Source: a virus
Taxonomy: Duplodnaviria; Heunggongvirae; Uroviricota; Caudoviricetes
Strand: one strand, 5' to 3'
DNA: 11,220 bases
IMG/VR virus record: IMGVR_UViG_2529292832_000020
Shown here piece after piece: positions 1,459 through 11,220 of the stretch. The translations under genes and the position numbers were made by a program. Within the stretch, counting starts at the first letter, position 1; every line of letters starts with the position of its first letter. A model generated the notes under the pieces. The model worked only from the letters and a program-made list of their open reading frames with translations, was not told the origin of the DNA and made no database searches.

Positions 1459-2622
1459 TTACACATCATTAGTACCTTCCTTATTTTTTGACTGGGACAA
1501 ATTTGGGACCGATGGGTTTAGGATCGAGTCTATTTGCCGTGCGTGTTCGGTAAGGTGATTAGGTGCAAGGTGAGCATATCGACGAACCATTTCGATAGAC
1601 TCCCAGCCTCCCATTTCCTGTAACACTGACAACGGGACTCCGGCTTGAACCAGCCAACTTGCCCATGTGTGTCTCAAGTCGTGAAATCTGAAATCATCAA
1701 TACCAGCCCGTCTCAGCGCCGCTTTCCAGGCTGTGTTTGCGTCATACCGCATCTTCCTGACTGTTGGCGCTTTCGTTCCGTCTGGTTTGGTACAGCTTTC
1801 CTTGTACACAAATACCCAACGGTGATGATTCCCGATTTGTTTTTTCAATACGCGACATGCAGTATCATTCAGCGCAACGCCAATTGCGCGGTTTGATTTA
1901 CTCTCTTCCGGGTTTATCCATGCCACCCGGCGCTGCATATCTATTTGTTGCCATTCAAGGTTGATGATGTTCGAGCGTCTTAGGCCTGTTGCCAGTGCAA
2001 ATTCAACAACAGACTTTAATGGCTCCGGACATTCATCAATCAGCCTTTGTGCTTCATGGGGCTCCAGCCAGCGGATCCGTTTATTCTTTGGTTGGGGCAC
2101 TTTAATAATTGGTGCCTTATCCAGCATTTTCCATTCACGCTCTGCGGCTCTTAGTAGGGCCTTTATAAATGAAAGATGCGTAGCCTTCGTTGCAACGGAC
2201 GCTGGTTTTGGCGTGTATTCTGGAACAGGTTTCCCTTTTTTTCTGCATGCTTCTGCCCTGAGTTTCCAGTTTTCCTCATGACGCCGGTTCGTCATTTTCT
2301 GCATTGCTGAATAAATTTTTGATTCAGTAATGTCTCTTAGTTGCATTCCTGCGAAATGTTGAAGCCAGAATCCGATCCGGCTTTTGTCATCGTCCAGTGA
2401 TTTTTTATGTGCTTTCTCTTCAAGCCACCTGACACACGCTTCCTCGAACGTTATATCAGGTATTTCACCAAGTTTGCTGACCCGCCATGCTTCAGCCTTT
2501 AGCTTGTCATGGAGTTCTGTCGCCTGCCTTTTGTCCTTTGTTCCAAGAGACTGTTTAAATCTTTTACCGTTCGGCAATGTGAAACTGGCGTACCATATTT
2601 CACCTCTGCGGAAGAGTGACAT
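1459..2622 (-). CDS. int: tyrosine-recombinase phage integrase (P22-type Int)
   Basis: 387-aa ORF, ATG at 2620-2622 with AGGAA Shine-Dalgarno upstream. N-terminus [33 protein letters not shown] matches my memory of P22-family Int; C-terminal RHTWAS...VRRYAHL is the catalytic R/H-x-x-R/Y region. Stop codon lies 15 nt from the tRNA 3' end. Confidence 0.9.
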
Positions 2623-5060: not shown

Positions 5061-5423
5061 TTAACGACCTGCTGCGCGGAGTTTTCCGTCAGGTTCACCG
5101 GCAAGAGTCAGTAATTGTCCTTGGTCTTCCTGCAGAATAGTCAGGCGACCACCGCGATTGACATACATCGGCGTTTCGGTGGTGTCTTCTTCGGAAATTT
5201 TCCCGCGGTTAGTCGGGCGAACATATGAGAGTTTGTGTTTGATTTTCACTCGGTTCTCATCAAACGGTTCGATTTCCAGGTTGAGCGAGACCTTACCTTT
5301 GGTTTTCGTGTTCATCACACCGGAAGCGACTTCACTGAGAACTGCGCCGATTTTGGTTTCAAATACGCCGCCGTCCAGCTCCCCGATAAATGCCTGCACA
5401 TCAGTACTGCGTTCGCTAGCCAT
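5061..5423 (-). CDS. hypothetical phage early protein (YfdP-like, 120 aa)
   Basis: The track's 226-aa ORF has a Cys/Trp/Arg-rich non-protein-like N-terminal extension. I start at the internal ATG at 5421-5423 (MASERSTDVQAFIGELDGG...), which has a GAGGAG Shine-Dalgarno 7 nt upstream and gives 120 aa. Confidence 0.68.
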   Translation of the reverse strand: MASERSTDVQAFIGELDGGVFETKIGAVLSEVASGVMNTKTKGKVSLNLEIEPFDENRVKIKHKLSYVRPTNRGKISEEDTTETPMYVNRGGRLTILQEDQGQLLTLAGEPDGKLRAAGR

Positions 5424-5561
5424 TTTGCTGCTCCTCATCATATCGACCCTGCAAGGTCGGTTAGTTTCTCCACAAAACAGAGAAGAACACCTGCGGTGAC
5501 TGCCGCCCGGATGGATTGGGTTATGAGCCCGTCGTCCGGTGATGCTCTTCTCTGTTTTGTA

Positions 5562-5605
5562 AAAAGGACGGTACCAGCCGGAAGCAAGGGTACAAGCTGG
5601 TACCG
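5562..5605 (-). terminator. candidate intrinsic terminator or attenuator on the minus strand, upstream of the early-left operon
   Basis: On the minus strand, a 10-bp perfect stem (plus-strand CGGTACCAGC at 5569-5578 and GCTGGTACCG at 5596-5605) with a 17-nt loop is followed within 2 nt by UUUUU (plus-strand A-run 5561-5565). The large loop weakens the call. Confidence 0.35.
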
Positions 5606-5827
5606 CCAAGACTACACACAGCATAAAGTTGTGGTGCCGGGTGCCTCCCGGTGCCTGGCGAAGGTTGTACACCAGACGGGTGGGTATCCACAGAAGGTCG
5701 ACTGTCAGCCTCAACCTTAACCCGCGTGCGCTGAGCCGCATTCACCACAACGCTAAGGATTCTCTCTGGTTGAAAATACTTAGCTGTTATGTGCCTGCTT
5801 TTAGCCACATCAGGCGAGGTGGACCTG

Positions 5828-5866
5828 GTTATTCCCCAACAACAAGGATTCGGTATAATCTGGATA
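5828..5866 (+). promoter_or_regulatory. candidate promoter of the AT-rich insert operon (consensus -10 TATAAT, weak -35)
   Basis: Exact TATAAT at 5854-5859, about 30 nt upstream of the AGGAAGGA ribosome-binding site of micro-ORF A. No good -35 (ATTCCC/TTCCCC). Flanked by direct repeats CCCAACAACAAGG (5835-5847) and CCCAACAACAGG (5868-5879). Confidence 0.35.
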
Positions 5867-5891
5867 TCCCAACAACAGGTAGGAAGGAAAT

Positions 5892-5975
5892 ATGTACGTA
5901 GATAGCAATGAAAAATTTCATGTTCCGGTAAATCAGAGACCAGCACCGATCCCTGAGCCGAAACCTGAAATGTAA
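5892..5975 (+). CDS. micro-ORF A, 27-aa proline-rich peptide (MYVDSNEKFHVPVNQRPAPIPEPKPEM)
   Basis: ATG at 5892 preceded by AGGAAGGA; stop TAA at 5973-5975, 10 nt before the membrane-protein ATG. Paralogous to micro-ORFs B and C with synonymous codon differences. Too short for the supplied ORF track. Confidence 0.4.
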   Translation: MYVDSNEKFHVPVNQRPAPIPEPKPEM

Positions 5976-5985
5976 GGGAATAGAG

Positions 5986-6465
5986 ATGACTCGAGACGAT
6001 CTAGCATTCGATATTCATTATTCTTTCTTTCTTGAGAAAATGAATTACACCCTTTTAAATCGGATAGACAAGAGCATAACTCTTGTTCTCATTGTCTTGG
6101 GCTTTTCTGTTTTTGCGCCATATAGCAATATGTTTATTTTTGGCGCATCTGTAGCTATTTTGTCGGTGCTTCAATTGGTATACCAATTTGGGCAGGAAGC
6201 TGGCTTATCAAAGGAACAGATGCGACAGTATAAAAGGTTGATTGTTGAGTTTTCCTCCCTTTCTGATGACGAACTACGCACTCGGTTTTTAAAGGTTCAA
6301 GACGCTGATAGTAATCCATGGAGATCTTTACAAGATGCTGCGTTCAAACGGACCTGTATTGCGCTGGGACGTGTTGATGAGTCAGAAATATCATTCATGC
6401 ATAGCGTTATCGCATGGTTTGCTGGAGATTTGCCTCGGTCAAAAAGGTGTAATAATGACAAATAG
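5986..6465 (+). CDS. two-transmembrane membrane protein of unknown family (159 aa); candidate exclusion/defence effector
   Basis: ATG at 5986. Two hydrophobic helices (ITLVLIVLGFSVFAPY and MFIFGASVAILSVLQLVYQFG) separated by a 3-residue turn, then a charged soluble C-terminal region of about 95 aa. Opposite strand to all neighbouring phage genes, AT-rich, with its own -10 and terminator. Confidence 0.75.
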   Translation: MTRDDLAFDIHYSFFLEKMNYTLLNRIDKSITLVLIVLGFSVFAPYSNMFIFGASVAILSVLQLVYQFGQEAGLSKEQMRQYKRLIVEFSSLSDDELRTRFLKVQDADSNPWRSLQDAAFKRTCIALGRVDESEISFMHSVIAWFAGDLPRSKRCNNDK

Positions 6466-6571
6466 AATTCCCATAATCCCTAACCATGTACCTCCAAAGC
6501 CCAGACCACCATCACCAAAGTCACACAGGCTTTATGAGTATGAATTAATAATGGATTCTATATTGAGATGA
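6455..6571 (+). CDS. micro-ORF B, 38-aa proline-rich peptide (MTNRIPIIPNHVPPKPRPPSPKSHRLYEYELIMDSILR)
   Basis: ATG at 6455 with AAGGTG 5 nt upstream; overlaps the last 11 nt of the membrane-protein gene in another frame. Shares the HVP...PRPPSP core with A and C. Confidence 0.35.
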   Translation: MTNRIPIIPNHVPPKPRPPSPKSHRLYEYELIMDSILR

Positions 6572-6575
6572 CCAA

Positions 6576-6665
6576 ATGAATGCATTTATATATACATGGA
6601 AAGAGGATCATATACCCTTAAAACCTCGTCCTTCACCGCCAGAACCGAAGCCAAAATCCCGTTAA
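6576..6665 (+). CDS. micro-ORF C, 29-aa proline-rich peptide (MNAFIYTWKEDHIPLKPRPSPPEPKPKSR)
   Basis: ATG at 6576, 5 nt after the ORF B stop; stop TAA at 6663-6665, about 30 nt before the terminator. Core HIPLKPRPSPPEPKP aligns with A (HVPVNQRPAPIPEPKP) using different codons (R as CGT vs AGA; P, E, K synonymous changes). Confidence 0.35.
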   Translation: MNAFIYTWKEDHIPLKPRPSPPEPKPKSR

Positions 6666-6693: not shown

Positions 6694-6722
6694 GCGAAGC
6701 GTCCTATAGGGCGCTTTTTTGT
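6694..6722 (+). terminator. rho-independent terminator of the insert operon
   Basis: GC-rich hairpin GCGTCC-TATA-GGGCGC (6699-6714, one G-U pair) followed by TTTTTTGTT (6715-6723) on the plus strand, directly after micro-ORF C. Confidence 0.6.
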
Positions 6723-6872: not shown

Positions 6873-7547
6873 TTAGGCTTTGATTTTGTATCTTCTTGGT
6901 TTTCCTGAGAAAATCACTGTACCAATTATAGAGCAATTACCGTTGATCTTAATGTAAGGCTCAGGCCAGTTTGGGTTTAACGCTTTGAGATAACGCTGTG
7001 TCCCATCTTCTATCAACCTTTTGAAGGTGGTTTCACCTGTATCGTGCATCAATGCAATAACGTCGTCACCGTGGCAGGCAGGTACTTCAGGATCGACAAA
7101 AATCATGTCTCCCGGGCGGTACTCATCAATCATTGAATCACCTATCACCCGCAAGATATAAGTCATTTCCCCACAGGGTACAGGGCAGGGATACGTTTCT
7201 GCTGTGCTCAAATCAACCTCAGAATATCCAACTTCTTTCCATGCTCCGGCCTGTACCCATGATATGACAGGGACTAATGTGATTTGTTTATTAGTGATTG
7301 AAACATCAGGTTTTTTTGTGATGTTCGTTGTCTGGTGTTCTTGATCGAGCCATCCGACAGGCAGGTCGAAACATTTTTCGATGTGTCGTGCCATGCTGTC
7401 ACCGATATTTTTAGTAGCACCATCTCCCATAAACCTGCTGGTCTGGGTTGGCTCGCGATCAATCATAGTGGCAAAGGAAGAATTCCCGCCAACACCATCT
7501 CTCAGTTTTCTGGCGTTAGACCGCCGGATGTCATGGATTGTTTTCAT
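6873..7547 (-). CDS. CI/C2-type prophage repressor (N-terminal DNA-binding domain plus C-terminal S24 LexA-like peptidase domain)
   Basis: 224-aa ORF, ATG at 7545-7547 with no Shine-Dalgarno (consistent with a leaderless transcript, as for lambda cI from PRM). S24 motifs are visible (ILRVIGDSM with catalytic Ser; Lys in ...TFKRLIEDG...). The C-terminal ...LNPNWPEPYIKINGNCSIIG resembles P22 C2 as I recall it. Confidence 0.88.
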   Translation of the reverse strand: MKTIHDIRRSNARKLRDGVGGNSSFATMIDREPTQTSRFMGDGATKNIGDSMARHIEKCFDLPVGWLDQEHQTTNITKKPDVSITNKQITLVPVISWVQAGAWKEVGYSEVDLSTAETYPCPVPCGEMTYILRVIGDSMIDEYRPGDMIFVDPEVPACHGDDVIALMHDTGETTFKRLIEDGTQRYLKALNPNWPEPYIKINGNCSIIGTVIFSGKPRRYKIKA

Positions 7548-8774: not shown

Positions 8775-8794
8775 AGGTCGGTCATGAGCACTAA
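8615..8794 (+). CDS. hypothetical small protein from a TTG start (59 aa), or the C-terminal part of a frameshifted gene
   Basis: Open frame with AAGGAG 8 nt upstream of TTG at 8615; translation [59 protein letters not shown] has balanced composition. Overlaps the O-like start by 11 nt. Below the track's length threshold. Confidence 0.3.
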
Positions 8795-9740
8795 ATTAAC
8801 CGGCTATGTATGGGATGGTTGCGCTGCATCAGGCATGAAGTTATCCAGCGTGGCAATTATGGCCCGCCTGGCTGATTTCAGTAATGACGAAGGTGTGTGC
8901 TGGCCATCAATTGAAACCATTGCCCGTCAGATTGGAGCGGGGATGAGTACCGTCAGAACGGCTATCGCACGGCTGGAAGCAGAAGGCTGGTTAACGCGTA
9001 AGGCGCGTCGCCAGGGTAACCGCAATGCGTCGAATGTTTATCAGCTTAACGTTGCGAAGCTTCAGGCAGCGGCATTTTCTCAACTGTCAGATTCTGACCC
9101 GTCAAAATCTGACGCATCAAAATCTGACGCATCAAAATCTGACCCGTCAAAATTTGATGCGTCGAAATCTGGCAAAAAAGCGGGTTTTCACCCGTCAGAA
9201 TCTGGCGGGGATCCGTCAGTAAAATCAAAACATGATCCGTCAGATAAAAAACCTTCTCGTCCGGACGCTTCGCAACCGGACACGCAGACGGCTGAACAGG
9301 ATTTTTTAACTCGCCATCCTGATGCGGTTGTATTCAGCCCTAAAAAGTGCCAGTGGGGGACGCAGGATGATTTGACCTGCGCACAGTGGCTCTGGAAAAA
9401 AATCATCGCCCTGTACGAGCAGGCTGCCGAATGTGACGGCGAGGTGGTTCGTCCCAAAGAACCGAACTGGACAGCCTGGGCAAACGAAATTCGCCTGATG
9501 TGTGTACAGGATGGGCGTACTCACAAACAAATCTGCGAGATGTACAGCCGCGTCAGCCGCGATCCGTTCTGGTGCCGTAACGTGCTCAGCCCGTCGAAGT
9601 TGCGGGAAAAATGGGATGAGCTTTCCCTGCGCTTATCGCCGTCCGTCAGCACGTACACCGAAAAACGCGAAGACCCGTACTTCAAAGCCAGTTACGACAA
9701 CGTGGACTACAGCCAGATCCCGGCAGGATTCAGGGGGTGA
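8784..9740 (+). CDS. phage replication initiation protein (O-like; N-terminal helix-turn-helix domain, repeat-encoded linker, C-terminal domain)
   Basis: 318-aa ORF, ATG at 8784 with GAGG upstream. N-terminal ...SVAIMARLADFSNDEGVCWPSIETIARQIGAGMSTVRTAIARLEAEGWLT is a winged-helix replication-initiator domain; the central DPSKSDASKSDASKSDPSKFDASKS repeat is encoded by tandem DNA iterons, as in lambda O. Confidence 0.8.
   Translation: MSTKLTGYVWDGCAASGMKLSSVAIMARLADFSNDEGVCWPSIETIARQIGAGMSTVRTAIARLEAEGWLTRKARRQGNRNASNVYQLNVAKLQAAAFSQLSDSDPSKSDASKSDASKSDPSKFDASKSGKKAGFHPSESGGDPSVKSKHDPSDKKPSRPDASQPDTQTAEQDFLTRHPDAVVFSPKKCQWGTQDDLTCAQWLWKKIIALYEQAAECDGEVVRPKEPNWTAWANEIRLMCVQDGRTHKQICEMYSRVSRDPFWCRNVLSPSKLREKWDELSLRLSPSVSTYTEKREDPYFKASYDNVDYSQIPAGFRG
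9084..9255 (+). repeat. iteron array, probable replication origin embedded in the initiator gene
   Basis: Six tandem 15-bp units (consensus TCAAAATCTGACGCA) from 9088 to 9177, then a short A-rich stretch GGCAAAAAAG and further CCGTCAG-containing repeats (9191-9245). Confidence 0.6.
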
Positions 9741-10944: not shown

Positions 10945-11220
10945 GTAAGCGTCAACGGAGCACCGTATTGACGCTTATTTATTGGTGAGTACTACGTTCC
11001 ATGGCAGGAGTTCGTCAACACGGTTGGAGGGCCATTCCGGCAGTACGCTCAGAATATGGCGCAGATACGCTTCCGGATCGATACCGTTCAGTCGGCAGGT
11101 GCCGATCAGCCCGTACAGCAGTGCTCCACGCTCGCCGCCGTGATCGCTACCGAAGAACACGTAATTTTTCTTTCCGAGACAGACTGCACGAAGCGCTCTT
11201 TCCGCTGTGTTATTGTCCAC
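10945..11220 (-). mobile_element. IS66-family insertion sequence, terminal about 276 bp (element continues beyond the window)
   Basis: The plus strand begins GTAAGCGTCAACGG..., i.e. the element ends ...CGCTTAC in its own orientation, which matches the IS66-family terminus as I recall it. The transposase C-terminus is encoded 31 bp inside on the minus strand. Confidence 0.7.
10975..11220 (-). CDS. IS66-family transposase (TnpC), C-terminal fragment; 5' part lies outside the window
   Basis: Translation ...DNNTAERALRAVCLGKKNYVFFGSDHGGERGALLYGLIGTCRLNGIDPEAYLRHILSVLPEWPSNRVDELLPWNVVLTNK matches the conserved C-terminus of IS66 transposases; the frame is open to the window edge. Confidence 0.85.
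   Translation of the reverse strand: MDNNTAERALRAVCLGKKNYVFFGSDHGGERGALLYGLIGTCRLNGIDPEAYLRHILSVLPEWPSNRVDELLPWNVVLTNK

Follow-up and report, generated by a model that had tools for sequence, protein, structure and literature searches.

Proline-rich micro-ORFs linked to the gene of a SLATT-like membrane protein in temperate phages

A cassette of three micro-ORFs around a membrane-protein gene

We analyzed a stretch of 11,220 nucleotides (nt) from the IMG/VR virus record IMGVR_UViG_2529292832_000020 (Caudoviricetes), hereafter the window, in which three very short proline-rich open reading frames (micro-ORFs A, B, and C) surround the gene of a small protein with two transmembrane segments (2TM). 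Comparison across 64 loci shows, at the level of sequence, that the micro-ORFs code for peptides, that these peptides are under selection, and that they are obligatorily linked to the 2TM gene. The explanation we favor, with a probability of about 0.5, is that A, B, and C are genuine translated micropeptides that form a compact operon with a SLATT-like 2TM protein and act as its antitoxin-like regulators in a cassette involved in conflicts between phages.

The three micro-ORFs are located around the membrane gene on the + strand, as described in an earlier note on this DNA. Micro-ORF A (5892-5975) encodes the upstream ("A-type") proline-rich micropeptide, 27 amino acids (aa) long (MYVDSNEKFHVPVNQRPAPIPEPKPEM), and has the Shine-Dalgarno sequence AGGAAGGA at 5881-5888. 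It is followed by the 2TM gene (5986-6465, + strand), whose product is a SLATT-like hairpin protein of 159 aa. The stop codon of A (TAA, 5973-5975) precedes the start of the 2TM gene by 10 nt and overlaps with the purine-rich ribosome-binding site of this gene. The overlap between the A stop and the 2TM Shine-Dalgarno reads cTGAGGTnnnnnATG, and the gap is 7-10 nt in nearly all loci. Downstream, micro-ORF B (6455-6571) encodes a basic proline-rich micropeptide of 38 aa (MTNRIPIIPNHVPPKPRPPSPKSHRLYEYELIMDSILR). Its ATG lies in the +1 frame, 11 nt before the end of the 2TM gene, with the Shine-Dalgarno AAGGTG at 6444-6449. This ATG is internal to a longer mechanical ORF starting at 6335, and its use as the start is confirmed by orthologues that begin with M-[ST]-[KR]-P shortly after in-frame stops. 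The C-terminal extension of B, SHRLYEYELIMDSILR, occurs only in the variant of the window and in one E. coli locus (L002, described below). The ATG of micro-ORF C (6576-6665; second downstream basic proline-rich micropeptide, 29 aa, MNAFIYTWKEDHIPLKPRPSPPEPKPKSR) is 4 nt after the B stop, with a weak ribosome-binding site (GAGA). The three ribosome-binding sites are those given in the earlier note.

An intrinsic terminator (6696-6717, + strand), made of a 9-bp stem and a T-run, closes the A-2TM-B-C transcription unit. Its sequence is kept in all lambdoid loci, as seen from a conserved reading in their translations. The overlapping stop and start signals at the A-2TM and 2TM-B junctions form an arrangement that is consistent with translational coupling. 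In this cassette RefSeq annotates the 159-aa gene alone, as a hypothetical protein (WP_000196297.1).

The peptide frames are conserved and under purifying selection

To assess the conservation of the cassette, we gathered 64 loci, in about 36 distinct configurations, from RefSeq E. coli genomes, IMG/VR, species-representative genomes, public assemblies, and GenBank phages. They belong to E. coli, Pseudescherichia, Atlantibacter, Cronobacter, Enterobacter, Klebsiella, Salmonella, Pectobacterium, Sodalis, Yersinia, and Photorhabdus, and include Providencia phage PSTNGR2lys, the P2-like phages Fels-2 and vB_YenM_42.18, a phage deposited as Elizabethkingia EKP1, and viral contigs with a G+C content (GC) of 33%. 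The identity of the membrane protein across these loci ranges from 100% down to around 30-35%. The cassette is present in 106 of 5426 complete E. coli genomes, with at least 99% identity in 53 of them and 60-80% in the other 53. It is also frequent in public assemblies of Klebsiella, where one variant is indexed in 716 collection blocks.

A proline-rich micro-ORF was found immediately upstream of the membrane gene in every one of the 64 loci. In lambdoid loci the A-type peptide has the consensus D-Y-E-E-[KR]-H-[MLV]-P-x-x-Q-[RK]-P-P-[AV]-P-P-K-P, followed by an acidic tail. Downstream of the membrane gene, one or two basic micro-ORFs are found in most of these loci as well; their core is M-[ST]-[KR]-P-x-x-P-x-H-[VI]-P-P-[KRH]-P-R-P-P-x-P-K. 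The arrangement of the downstream peptides varies: B and C are fused into one ORF in five loci (L044, L045, L050, P0277, and P0279), two loci have a tandem double core within one ORF (L027 and L151), three have a single downstream peptide (L046-L048), and one has two peptides upstream and one downstream (L160). All peptides lack a signal peptide or a transmembrane segment, and they end in -PKG, -PKK, -PGPGPK, -PKPKSR, or -PRPR. The net charge of the A-type ranges from -8 to +7, whereas that of the B/C-type is always basic (+1 to +6). At least one Pro-Pro pair is present in 19 of 21 A-type and 18 of 19 B/C-type peptides, and there is none in ORF A of the window.

The earlier note had proposed that the three peptides of the window share the motif H-[VI]-P-x(2,3)-R-P-[AS]-P-x-P-E-P-K-P. 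This holds for A and C, whereas B has only H-V-P-P-K-P-R-P-P-S-P-K in common with them. The core that applies to the whole family is [HQ]-hydrophobic-P-x(1-3)-[RK]-P-(P)-x-P. A six-frame translation of the window has exactly three sites with a loose core motif, corresponding to A, B, and C, when shuffles give an expectation of 0.04; this pattern was defined after seeing the data. Proline-dense stretches of 12 aa occur 2.98 times per kb in the cassettes vs. 0.196 times per kb in the prophage DNA that flanks them in these loci.

The comparison of codons indicates that selection acts on the peptides. The codons that differ between A and C (AGA/CGT for Arg, CCA/CCT for Pro, GAG/GAA for Glu, AAA/AAG for Lys) are those reported earlier. 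Across the family, the conserved His, Pro, and Arg/Lys positions use all the synonymous codons, with both CGN and AGR for Arg, and the variation in peptide length is always in frame. In the codon alignment of the A-type, the proportion of synonymous differences (pS) is saturated at 0.79, vs. 0.34 for nonsynonymous ones (pN), and the differences at the three codon positions number 1754, 1340, and 2585, the third being dominant. The ratio of nonsynonymous to synonymous substitution rates (dN/dS) of the 2TM gene is around 0.09. The earlier note viewed the micro-ORFs as peptide-coding paralogues under purifying selection, as opposed to a drifting repeat, and held that broken peptide frames in homologous loci would refute this view. 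The view passes this test: frames are kept in 64/64 loci while synonymous sites are saturated.

One could still argue that these ORFs are not genes, either because a C-rich stretch leaves frames open by chance or because a conserved DNA or RNA element happens to read as prolines when translated. They are indeed very short (27-38 aa), unannotated in RefSeq, and the three peptides of the window are absent from a collection of 15 billion proteins. Yet, the frames persist over loci whose DNA has diverged to saturation, and proline codons are rare in genomes with 33% GC, where the peptides nevertheless persist. The conservation of the frames, the scrambling of synonymous codons, and the in-frame indels together rule out both chance and a conserved nucleic acid element, and we rejected this reading, leaving it a negligible probability. 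Searches for such an element in the window and at the junction between ORF A and the 2TM gene revealed no DNA repeat, RNA family, or stable structure; the Rfam scans, at gathering and E-value thresholds, gave only tRNA-Thr and noise. An explanation by DNA repeats or iterons was rejected as well, because a repeat search between the three ORFs found no direct repeat linking them and synonymous codons are scrambled. We also considered a programmed +1 frameshift from the 2TM gene into B at AAA-AGG, which was rejected since the B frame has stops 0-12 nt upstream of the ATG in many loci.

The family was not recognized in the earlier note, nor did we find a match to it in Pfam, PHROG, PADLOC, or the PDB (profiles searched against chains of at least 20 residues). 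A profile search of 5.8 billion proteins, from which the A-type profile was left out as too short, only retrieved the fused members of the family itself, and the few longer relatives found by gene callers are named "hypothetical protein". In full-text searches of the literature we found no description of this cassette or of proline-rich micro-ORFs paired with a SLATT-like protein. The same pairing recurs in many temperate phages and points to an undescribed module made of peptides and a membrane protein, which is probably used in conflicts between phages.

The peptides are linked to the membrane gene and not to the genomic slot

In the window, the plus-strand cassette separates the early-left genes from the S24/LexA-type repressor gene. 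Its transcription runs opposite to that of the early lytic operon and ends at a terminator of its own. With these features, and given that it occupies variable accessory slots, its layout is that of a moron. The slot itself does not account for the peptides. When it carries other cargo, e.g., an ECs1072-family protein, there are no proline-dense ORFs. Conversely, the peptides are kept when the cassette is elsewhere: between the lysis genes and the antiterminator gene in Photorhabdus and in EKP1, and antisense inside the early operon in the P2-like Fels-2. The link is thus with the membrane gene. The co-occurrence of the peptides with the 2TM gene in other prophages, which the earlier note had suggested looking for, extends to 64/64 loci, with both moving together between slots. 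When 2.9 million viral contigs were scanned with an exact degenerate-DNA pattern for H-x-P-P-x-P-R-P-P, 41 matches fell in loci carrying the 2TM gene. The 54 matches without it are nearly all off-frame Arg/Pro-rich readings without start codons.

In Pectobacterium the two components are physically joined (P0022; six contigs; positions 3001-3543 in L051-L053). There, the B core is in frame at the C-terminus of the membrane protein, which is 180 aa long and ends in ...AGDLPTEKESKMAKPPVDGHIPPRPRPPAPPKAQN, and the separate downstream micro-ORF is absent. Among the functions listed in the earlier note, that of partners of the membrane protein gains support from this natural in-frame fusion, from the obligate synteny, and from the coupling-like overlapping signals.

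Several individual loci merit description. In E. coli AH04 (L002, NZ_CP081706.1, 2404-3198) the cassette is recombinant: A and the 2TM gene are of the type with 67% identity, ORF C is identical to that of the window, and ORF B is a hybrid (MMTNKYNPVHGHVGHVPPKPRPPSPKSHRLYEDELIMDSILR). Downstream peptides are thus exchanged between diverged variants of the membrane protein. In E. coli S1-KEN-04-A (L005, 1607-2082) a deletion of 4 nt truncates the N-terminus of the membrane gene in a cassette that is otherwise 99.4% identical; RefSeq calls a 141-aa product from an internal Met, and the three micro-ORFs are intact.

The prophage Fels-2 of Salmonella LT2 (L156, NC_010463.1, around 1900-2435 of the locus) has a homologue of the membrane protein at 35% identity, preceded by a 26-aa ORF (MSDSDNFHVLPRPAPAPKPEPGQDKK) that is the closest A-type relative. 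The deposited annotations STM2733.1 and STM2735 are on the other strand, and the record therefore appears to miss the two genes. Distant homologues, at around 30% identity, are in two IMG/VR contigs with 33% GC from a low-GC host (L160 and L161, 888-2070), with the upstream proline-rich micro-ORFs MSDEDKYQYGVPPKKRPTPIPIPTPKK and MNRPKFNGGVPPKKRPTPKPDNTKNK and a downstream one reading …EHYPPKPKPT…. A scan of genome contigs for distant members yielded only three loci, and two scans with single proteins gave none. Finally, outside the 2TM context, a recurrent and unrelated protein of 450 aa, found in contigs of uncultivated phages (L061, L093, L094, L119, L135, and L140; IMG/VR, around 40% GC), carries the H-x-P-P-x-P-R-P-P core at its C-terminus, which ends in ...GGHLPPNPRPPGR.

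The membrane protein resembles SLATT effectors

The 2TM protein matches phrog_6315, a family without assigned function. Its hydrophobic segments span residues of around 30-47 and 49-66. The AlphaFold2 (AF2) model, with a predicted local distance difference test (pLDDT) score of 76, is all-helical and has a long hairpin, in which helices 3-41 and 49-87 are separated by a loop of 7 residues and followed by three short helices. Hence, the model displays a typical trait of SLATT proteins, a two-helix membrane hairpin with flanking cytoplasmic helices in a small protein. The distribution of charges and the hairpin model predict that both termini are cytoplasmic. The top fold matches in BFVD are giant-virus proteins annotated as SLATT, and UniRef gives this name to some members of the family. 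Matches to NCBIfam profiles are weak: SLATT_5 hits 2 of 26 members (best E-value 5e-4) and SLATT_4 hits 1 of 26 (E-value 0.06). The Pfam SLATT profile has no match in 10 more distant members. Given a fold like that of a SLATT hairpin effector and profile matches below the curated thresholds, we call the protein only SLATT-like. Its family is compact, with around 249 clusters at 50% identity among 1.84 billion representatives; of the members listed, almost all stand alone, with lengths of around 150-180 aa.

SLATT proteins are predicted pore-forming effectors used in DRT10 and other defense systems, and how they are triggered has been described as an open question (bioRxiv 10.64898/2026.04.29.721553). 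Like the SLATT effectors associated with DRT10/UG17 (SLATT-5) or with SMODS and SLOG partners, the 2TM protein has an N-terminal cytoplasmic helix, a tight hairpin, and a helical cytoplasmic C-terminus, and it is carried by prophages or other mobile elements. The tight coupling to a partner gene, with overlapping stop and start, is also found in SLATT-RT (bioRxiv 10.64898/2026.04.29.721553). The partners are different. Unlike in SLATT systems, the 2TM protein is only accompanied by proline-rich peptides of 20-50 aa, and the cassette has no nucleotide-synthesizing, nucleotide-binding, or reverse-transcriptase partner (no SMODS, SLOG, or reverse transcriptase), its neighbors being genes of the prophage backbone. 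We rate the cassette as a membrane effector of the small kind known from conflict systems of mobile elements, here paired with a class of partners that had not been seen before.

A model of micropeptide regulation

The model we favor considers A, 2TM, B, and C as a self-contained operon, bounded by an upstream element and a terminator of its own and with translation signals that overlap, that would ride the accessory (moron) slots of temperate phages. The peptides would be soluble cytoplasmic ligands of the polyproline-II type, with the core [H/Q]-hydrophobic-P...[R/K]-P-P-x-P, and we infer from the sequences that they dock on the cytoplasmic side of the membrane protein, which they control. 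The A-type peptide would be the universal partner, and the basic B/C-type extra copies that expanded in the lambdoid lineage and that can even become a C-terminal tail of the membrane protein. Translational coupling would keep the production of the peptides matched to that of the 2TM protein, and the peptides might prevent the latter from oligomerizing into a state that permeabilizes the membrane. A superinfecting phage that perturbs or sequesters the supply of peptides might then cause the membrane protein to fire, with the infection being aborted or the invader excluded. Both the antitoxin-like sign of the regulation and the anti-phage output are speculative. A function in conflicts between phages is nevertheless the most economical reading of a moron layout combined with an effector-like fold.

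The cassette has features of known toxin-antitoxin and abortive-infection pairs, of which RexAB of phage lambda is an example in a prophage immunity region. It occupies an accessory slot beside the repressor and associates a membrane-acting component with a small partner gene. As in type II-style toxin-antitoxin systems, the small gene comes first and the overlapping signals are consistent with translational coupling; an adjacent small partner is co-inherited with the effector in 64/64 loci. There are also differences. The proteins have no relation in sequence or fold to RexA or RexB, the partners are micropeptides with up to three paralogues instead of a folded antitoxin, and the cassette is convergent with cI and not co-transcribed with it.

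Several points weigh against this model. Translation at the three starts, binding of the peptides to the 2TM protein, toxicity of the latter, and protection from phages are all deduced from sequence data. The 2TM protein falls short of the curated threshold of every SLATT model, and it has no Pfam match beyond noise (E-values up to 10) and no PADLOC match. In the AF2 model of the natural fusion between 2TM and B, the tethered proline-rich tail has a pLDDT of only 50-64. The recombinant cassette of AH04 combines B and C of the window type with a 2TM protein and A of the 67%-identity type, so that the peptides are interchangeable between diverged 2TM variants, which fits equally well a conserved docking site and a target other than the 2TM protein. 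Given the range of charge of the A-type, a simple rule of electrostatic pairing does not emerge. Lastly, the sequences are compatible with inhibitor, activator, and structural-subunit roles alike.

The last of these roles corresponds to an alternative in which the peptides are obligatory positive subunits or adaptors for the assembly, stability, or targeting of the membrane protein, e.g., in a superinfection-exclusion complex. It draws on the same evidence of linkage, coupling, and fusion, and the fused tail is at least as easily reconciled with a structural role as with that of an antitoxin. The small prophage protein DicB, which acts on inner-membrane proteins to block phage entry, provides a comparison (PMC6832061): it shares with the peptides the very small size, the prophage origin, the inner-membrane partner, and a possible outcome in phage exclusion (PMC6832061), whereas regulators of this type are not proline-rich, do not form paralogous sets, and act on host proteins instead of a co-encoded partner. 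At the level of sequence the subunit and inhibitor models are not separated, and the frameshift in the 2TM gene of an otherwise intact cassette (S1-KEN-04-A) fits either of them. The SLATT-like fold, in turn, is tied to suicide or effector roles and not to entry blocks (bioRxiv 10.64898/2026.04.29.721553). We regard the subunit alternative as possible, if rather unlikely. We find it improbable that the peptides are cis-acting leaders or arrest peptides, where pausing dependent on EF-P or prolyl-tRNA would set the translation of the 2TM gene or the fate of its mRNA without any function in trans. The position of ORF A, 7-10 nt upstream of the 2TM gene with its stop overlapping the Shine-Dalgarno, and the frequency of Pro-Pro pairs in both types of peptides are what such leaders would have. 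The mgtP and mgtL leaders are precedents for this type of control by proline-rich sequences. Another is CutF, a stalling-like leader with a proline-rich C-terminus that controls the downstream gene; like it, ORF A is small, has a C-terminal proline-rich stretch, and lies immediately upstream of the gene it accompanies (PMC9973294). The control by CutF, however, needs a stem-loop at the ribosome-binding site (PMC9973294). We folded 91-nt windows, from the 3' end of A to the start of the 2TM gene, in six diverse loci, and found no such stem-loop over the 2TM ribosome-binding site when compared with shuffles (z-scores of -0.8 to +0.5), the predicted structures being different between loci. Furthermore, B and C are downstream of the 2TM gene with only a terminator after them, and ORF A of the window lacks Pro-Pro. 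For these three reasons the poly-Pro stalling leader, one of the options of the earlier note, loses support. In addition, the number of codons separating Pro-Pro from the stop is variable (3 to 8), residues irrelevant to stalling are conserved (the His, the acidic D-Y-E-E-K block, and Arg/Lys), and the B core is tolerated as the C-terminal tail of a protein. The downstream paralogues, the conservation beyond prolines, the fusion, and the missing stem-loop thus all set the cassette apart from CutF-type leaders.

The basic peptides could instead resemble proline-rich antimicrobial peptides (PrAMPs) and act as effectors on the ribosomal exit tunnel or on DnaK, with A and/or the 2TM protein as antidote or conduit. 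The cores F-H-I-P-P-R-P-R-P-P-G-P and H-V-P-T-Q-P-R-P-P-A-P share PRPRPP with oncocin and PxPRPPxP with apidaecin (PMC4797290, PMC11549390), and the C peptide of one variant (L004) contains PRPRPP exactly as in oncocin, in a match that is short and of low complexity. Type I PrAMPs (oncocin, Bac7, pyrrhocoricin, and metalnikowin) have Pro-Arg repeats around an aromatic/basic and hydrophobic pair, [Tyr/Arg]-[Leu/Arg] (PMC4797290); the stretch H-[VI]-P-P-[KRH]-P-R-P-P of B/C resembles this definition, and the A-type does not fit it. B/C are short, unstructured, and always cationic proline-rich peptides with a PRPP/PRPRPP core after such a pair. The likeness is limited, however, to 6-8 residues of low complexity. 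The peptides lack the type II octapeptide PRPPHPRL, which has a penultimate Arg and a C-terminal Leu, and share only PRPP with it (PMC11549390). Nor do they match any PDB chain of at least 20 residues. They are also unlike PrAMPs in being encoded by a phage gene inside a bacterium, without secretory precursor, export signal, or processing site, in having Lys or His as often as Arg, and in including A-type members that are not cationic and can be acidic. Moreover, a constitutive inhibitor of the ribosome would harm the lysogen, and 53 E. coli genomes carry an essentially identical and intact cassette. The ribosome-targeting peptides listed in the earlier note neither gain nor lose support from these comparisons. 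We see little chance that the peptides are such effectors, and a slightly smaller one that B/C are phage-encoded PrAMP analogues, made inside the bacterium and controlled by A and/or the membrane protein, that plug the exit tunnel (or DnaK) and thereby shut down translation in an abortive response or, once released through the SLATT-like pore, poison neighbors. If the latter were true, the PrAMP principle would have its first example in bacteriophages, which would have evolved it convergently with the immune systems of insects and mammals.

If the micropeptide model is correct, a family of small membrane effectors (around 250 clusters at the level of 50% identity) that is carried by about 2% of the complete E. 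coli genomes, is frequent in Klebsiella assemblies, and occurs in Fels-2 of Salmonella works with partners that are invisible to standard annotation. It would reveal a new regulatory principle for SLATT or pore-type systems, where gating depends on micropeptides instead of a nucleotide or complementary DNA (cDNA) signal. The cassette is a tractable example of functional bacterial micropeptides under strong selection, and it warns that hypothetical morons of apparently a single gene may be systems of several genes. The peptides themselves would be natural polyproline-II ligands with an easily tested target, be it the membrane partner, the ribosome, or a chaperone.

Upstream element and prophage context

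A conserved non-coding element of around 100 nt is located directly upstream of ORF A (5792-5891, + strand). The alignment of 15 loci from at least six genera shows near-invariant blocks in this element: a hairpin-like motif GCCTG-N13-CAGGC, followed by two direct repeats TGGAT..TCCCCAACAAC(A)AGGA, and three or four conserved GGA motifs, among which is the Shine-Dalgarno of ORF A. At 5854-5859 the window has a perfect TATAAT; the corresponding sequence in most loci is GGTTAATCT. A promoter scan found no full sigma-70 match on the + strand. The element has no match in Rfam and does not fold better than shuffles. It is part of the prophage backbone, and around 1870 of the 5426 E. coli genomes have the flank of the cassette with other cargo. 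It is probably the promoter and 5' untranslated region (UTR) of the cassette; its resemblance to the multi-GGA 5' UTRs of the CsrA type is speculation.

The window is a segment of the E. coli chromosome that runs into an integrated lambdoid/CPS-53-like prophage. Its chromosomal left end has proA (1-1254), and a tRNA-Thr(CGU) gene (1369-1444) lies between proA and the prophage. The first prophage gene is the integrase (1459-2622, minus strand), followed on the same strand by yfdR/yfdQ/yfdP-like early-left genes. After the cassette come the S24/LexA-type, cI-like repressor (6873-7547, minus strand) and then, on the plus strand, cro, a CII-like gene (ymfL), and the replication genes. In phage lambda, rexAB has a map position equivalent to the slot of the cassette. 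The early-left gene adjoining the cassette (5061-5748, minus strand; 2680-2999 of locus L001) is called frameshifted by RefSeq, and its match to phrog_204 is limited to the C-terminal 125 aa or so of the mechanical ORF of 226 aa.

Two further features are found in the right part of the window. Within a gene that resembles replication initiators (8784-9740), positions 9093-9171 have five copies of a 15-nt tandem repeat, TCTGACCCGTCAAAA, which encodes a repeated SDASK/SDPSK stretch. In phage lambda an iteron-type origin lies within the O gene, and this repeat may similarly be an iteron-type origin embedded in an O-like gene. At the end of the window, an ORF on the minus strand (10975-11220; ...LPWNVVLTNK) was taken by eye for the C-terminus of an IS66-family transposase and, if so, the prophage is interrupted there by an insertion sequence. 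In strain GE3, the IS66-family element ISEc23 is inserted at a different place in the same prophage.

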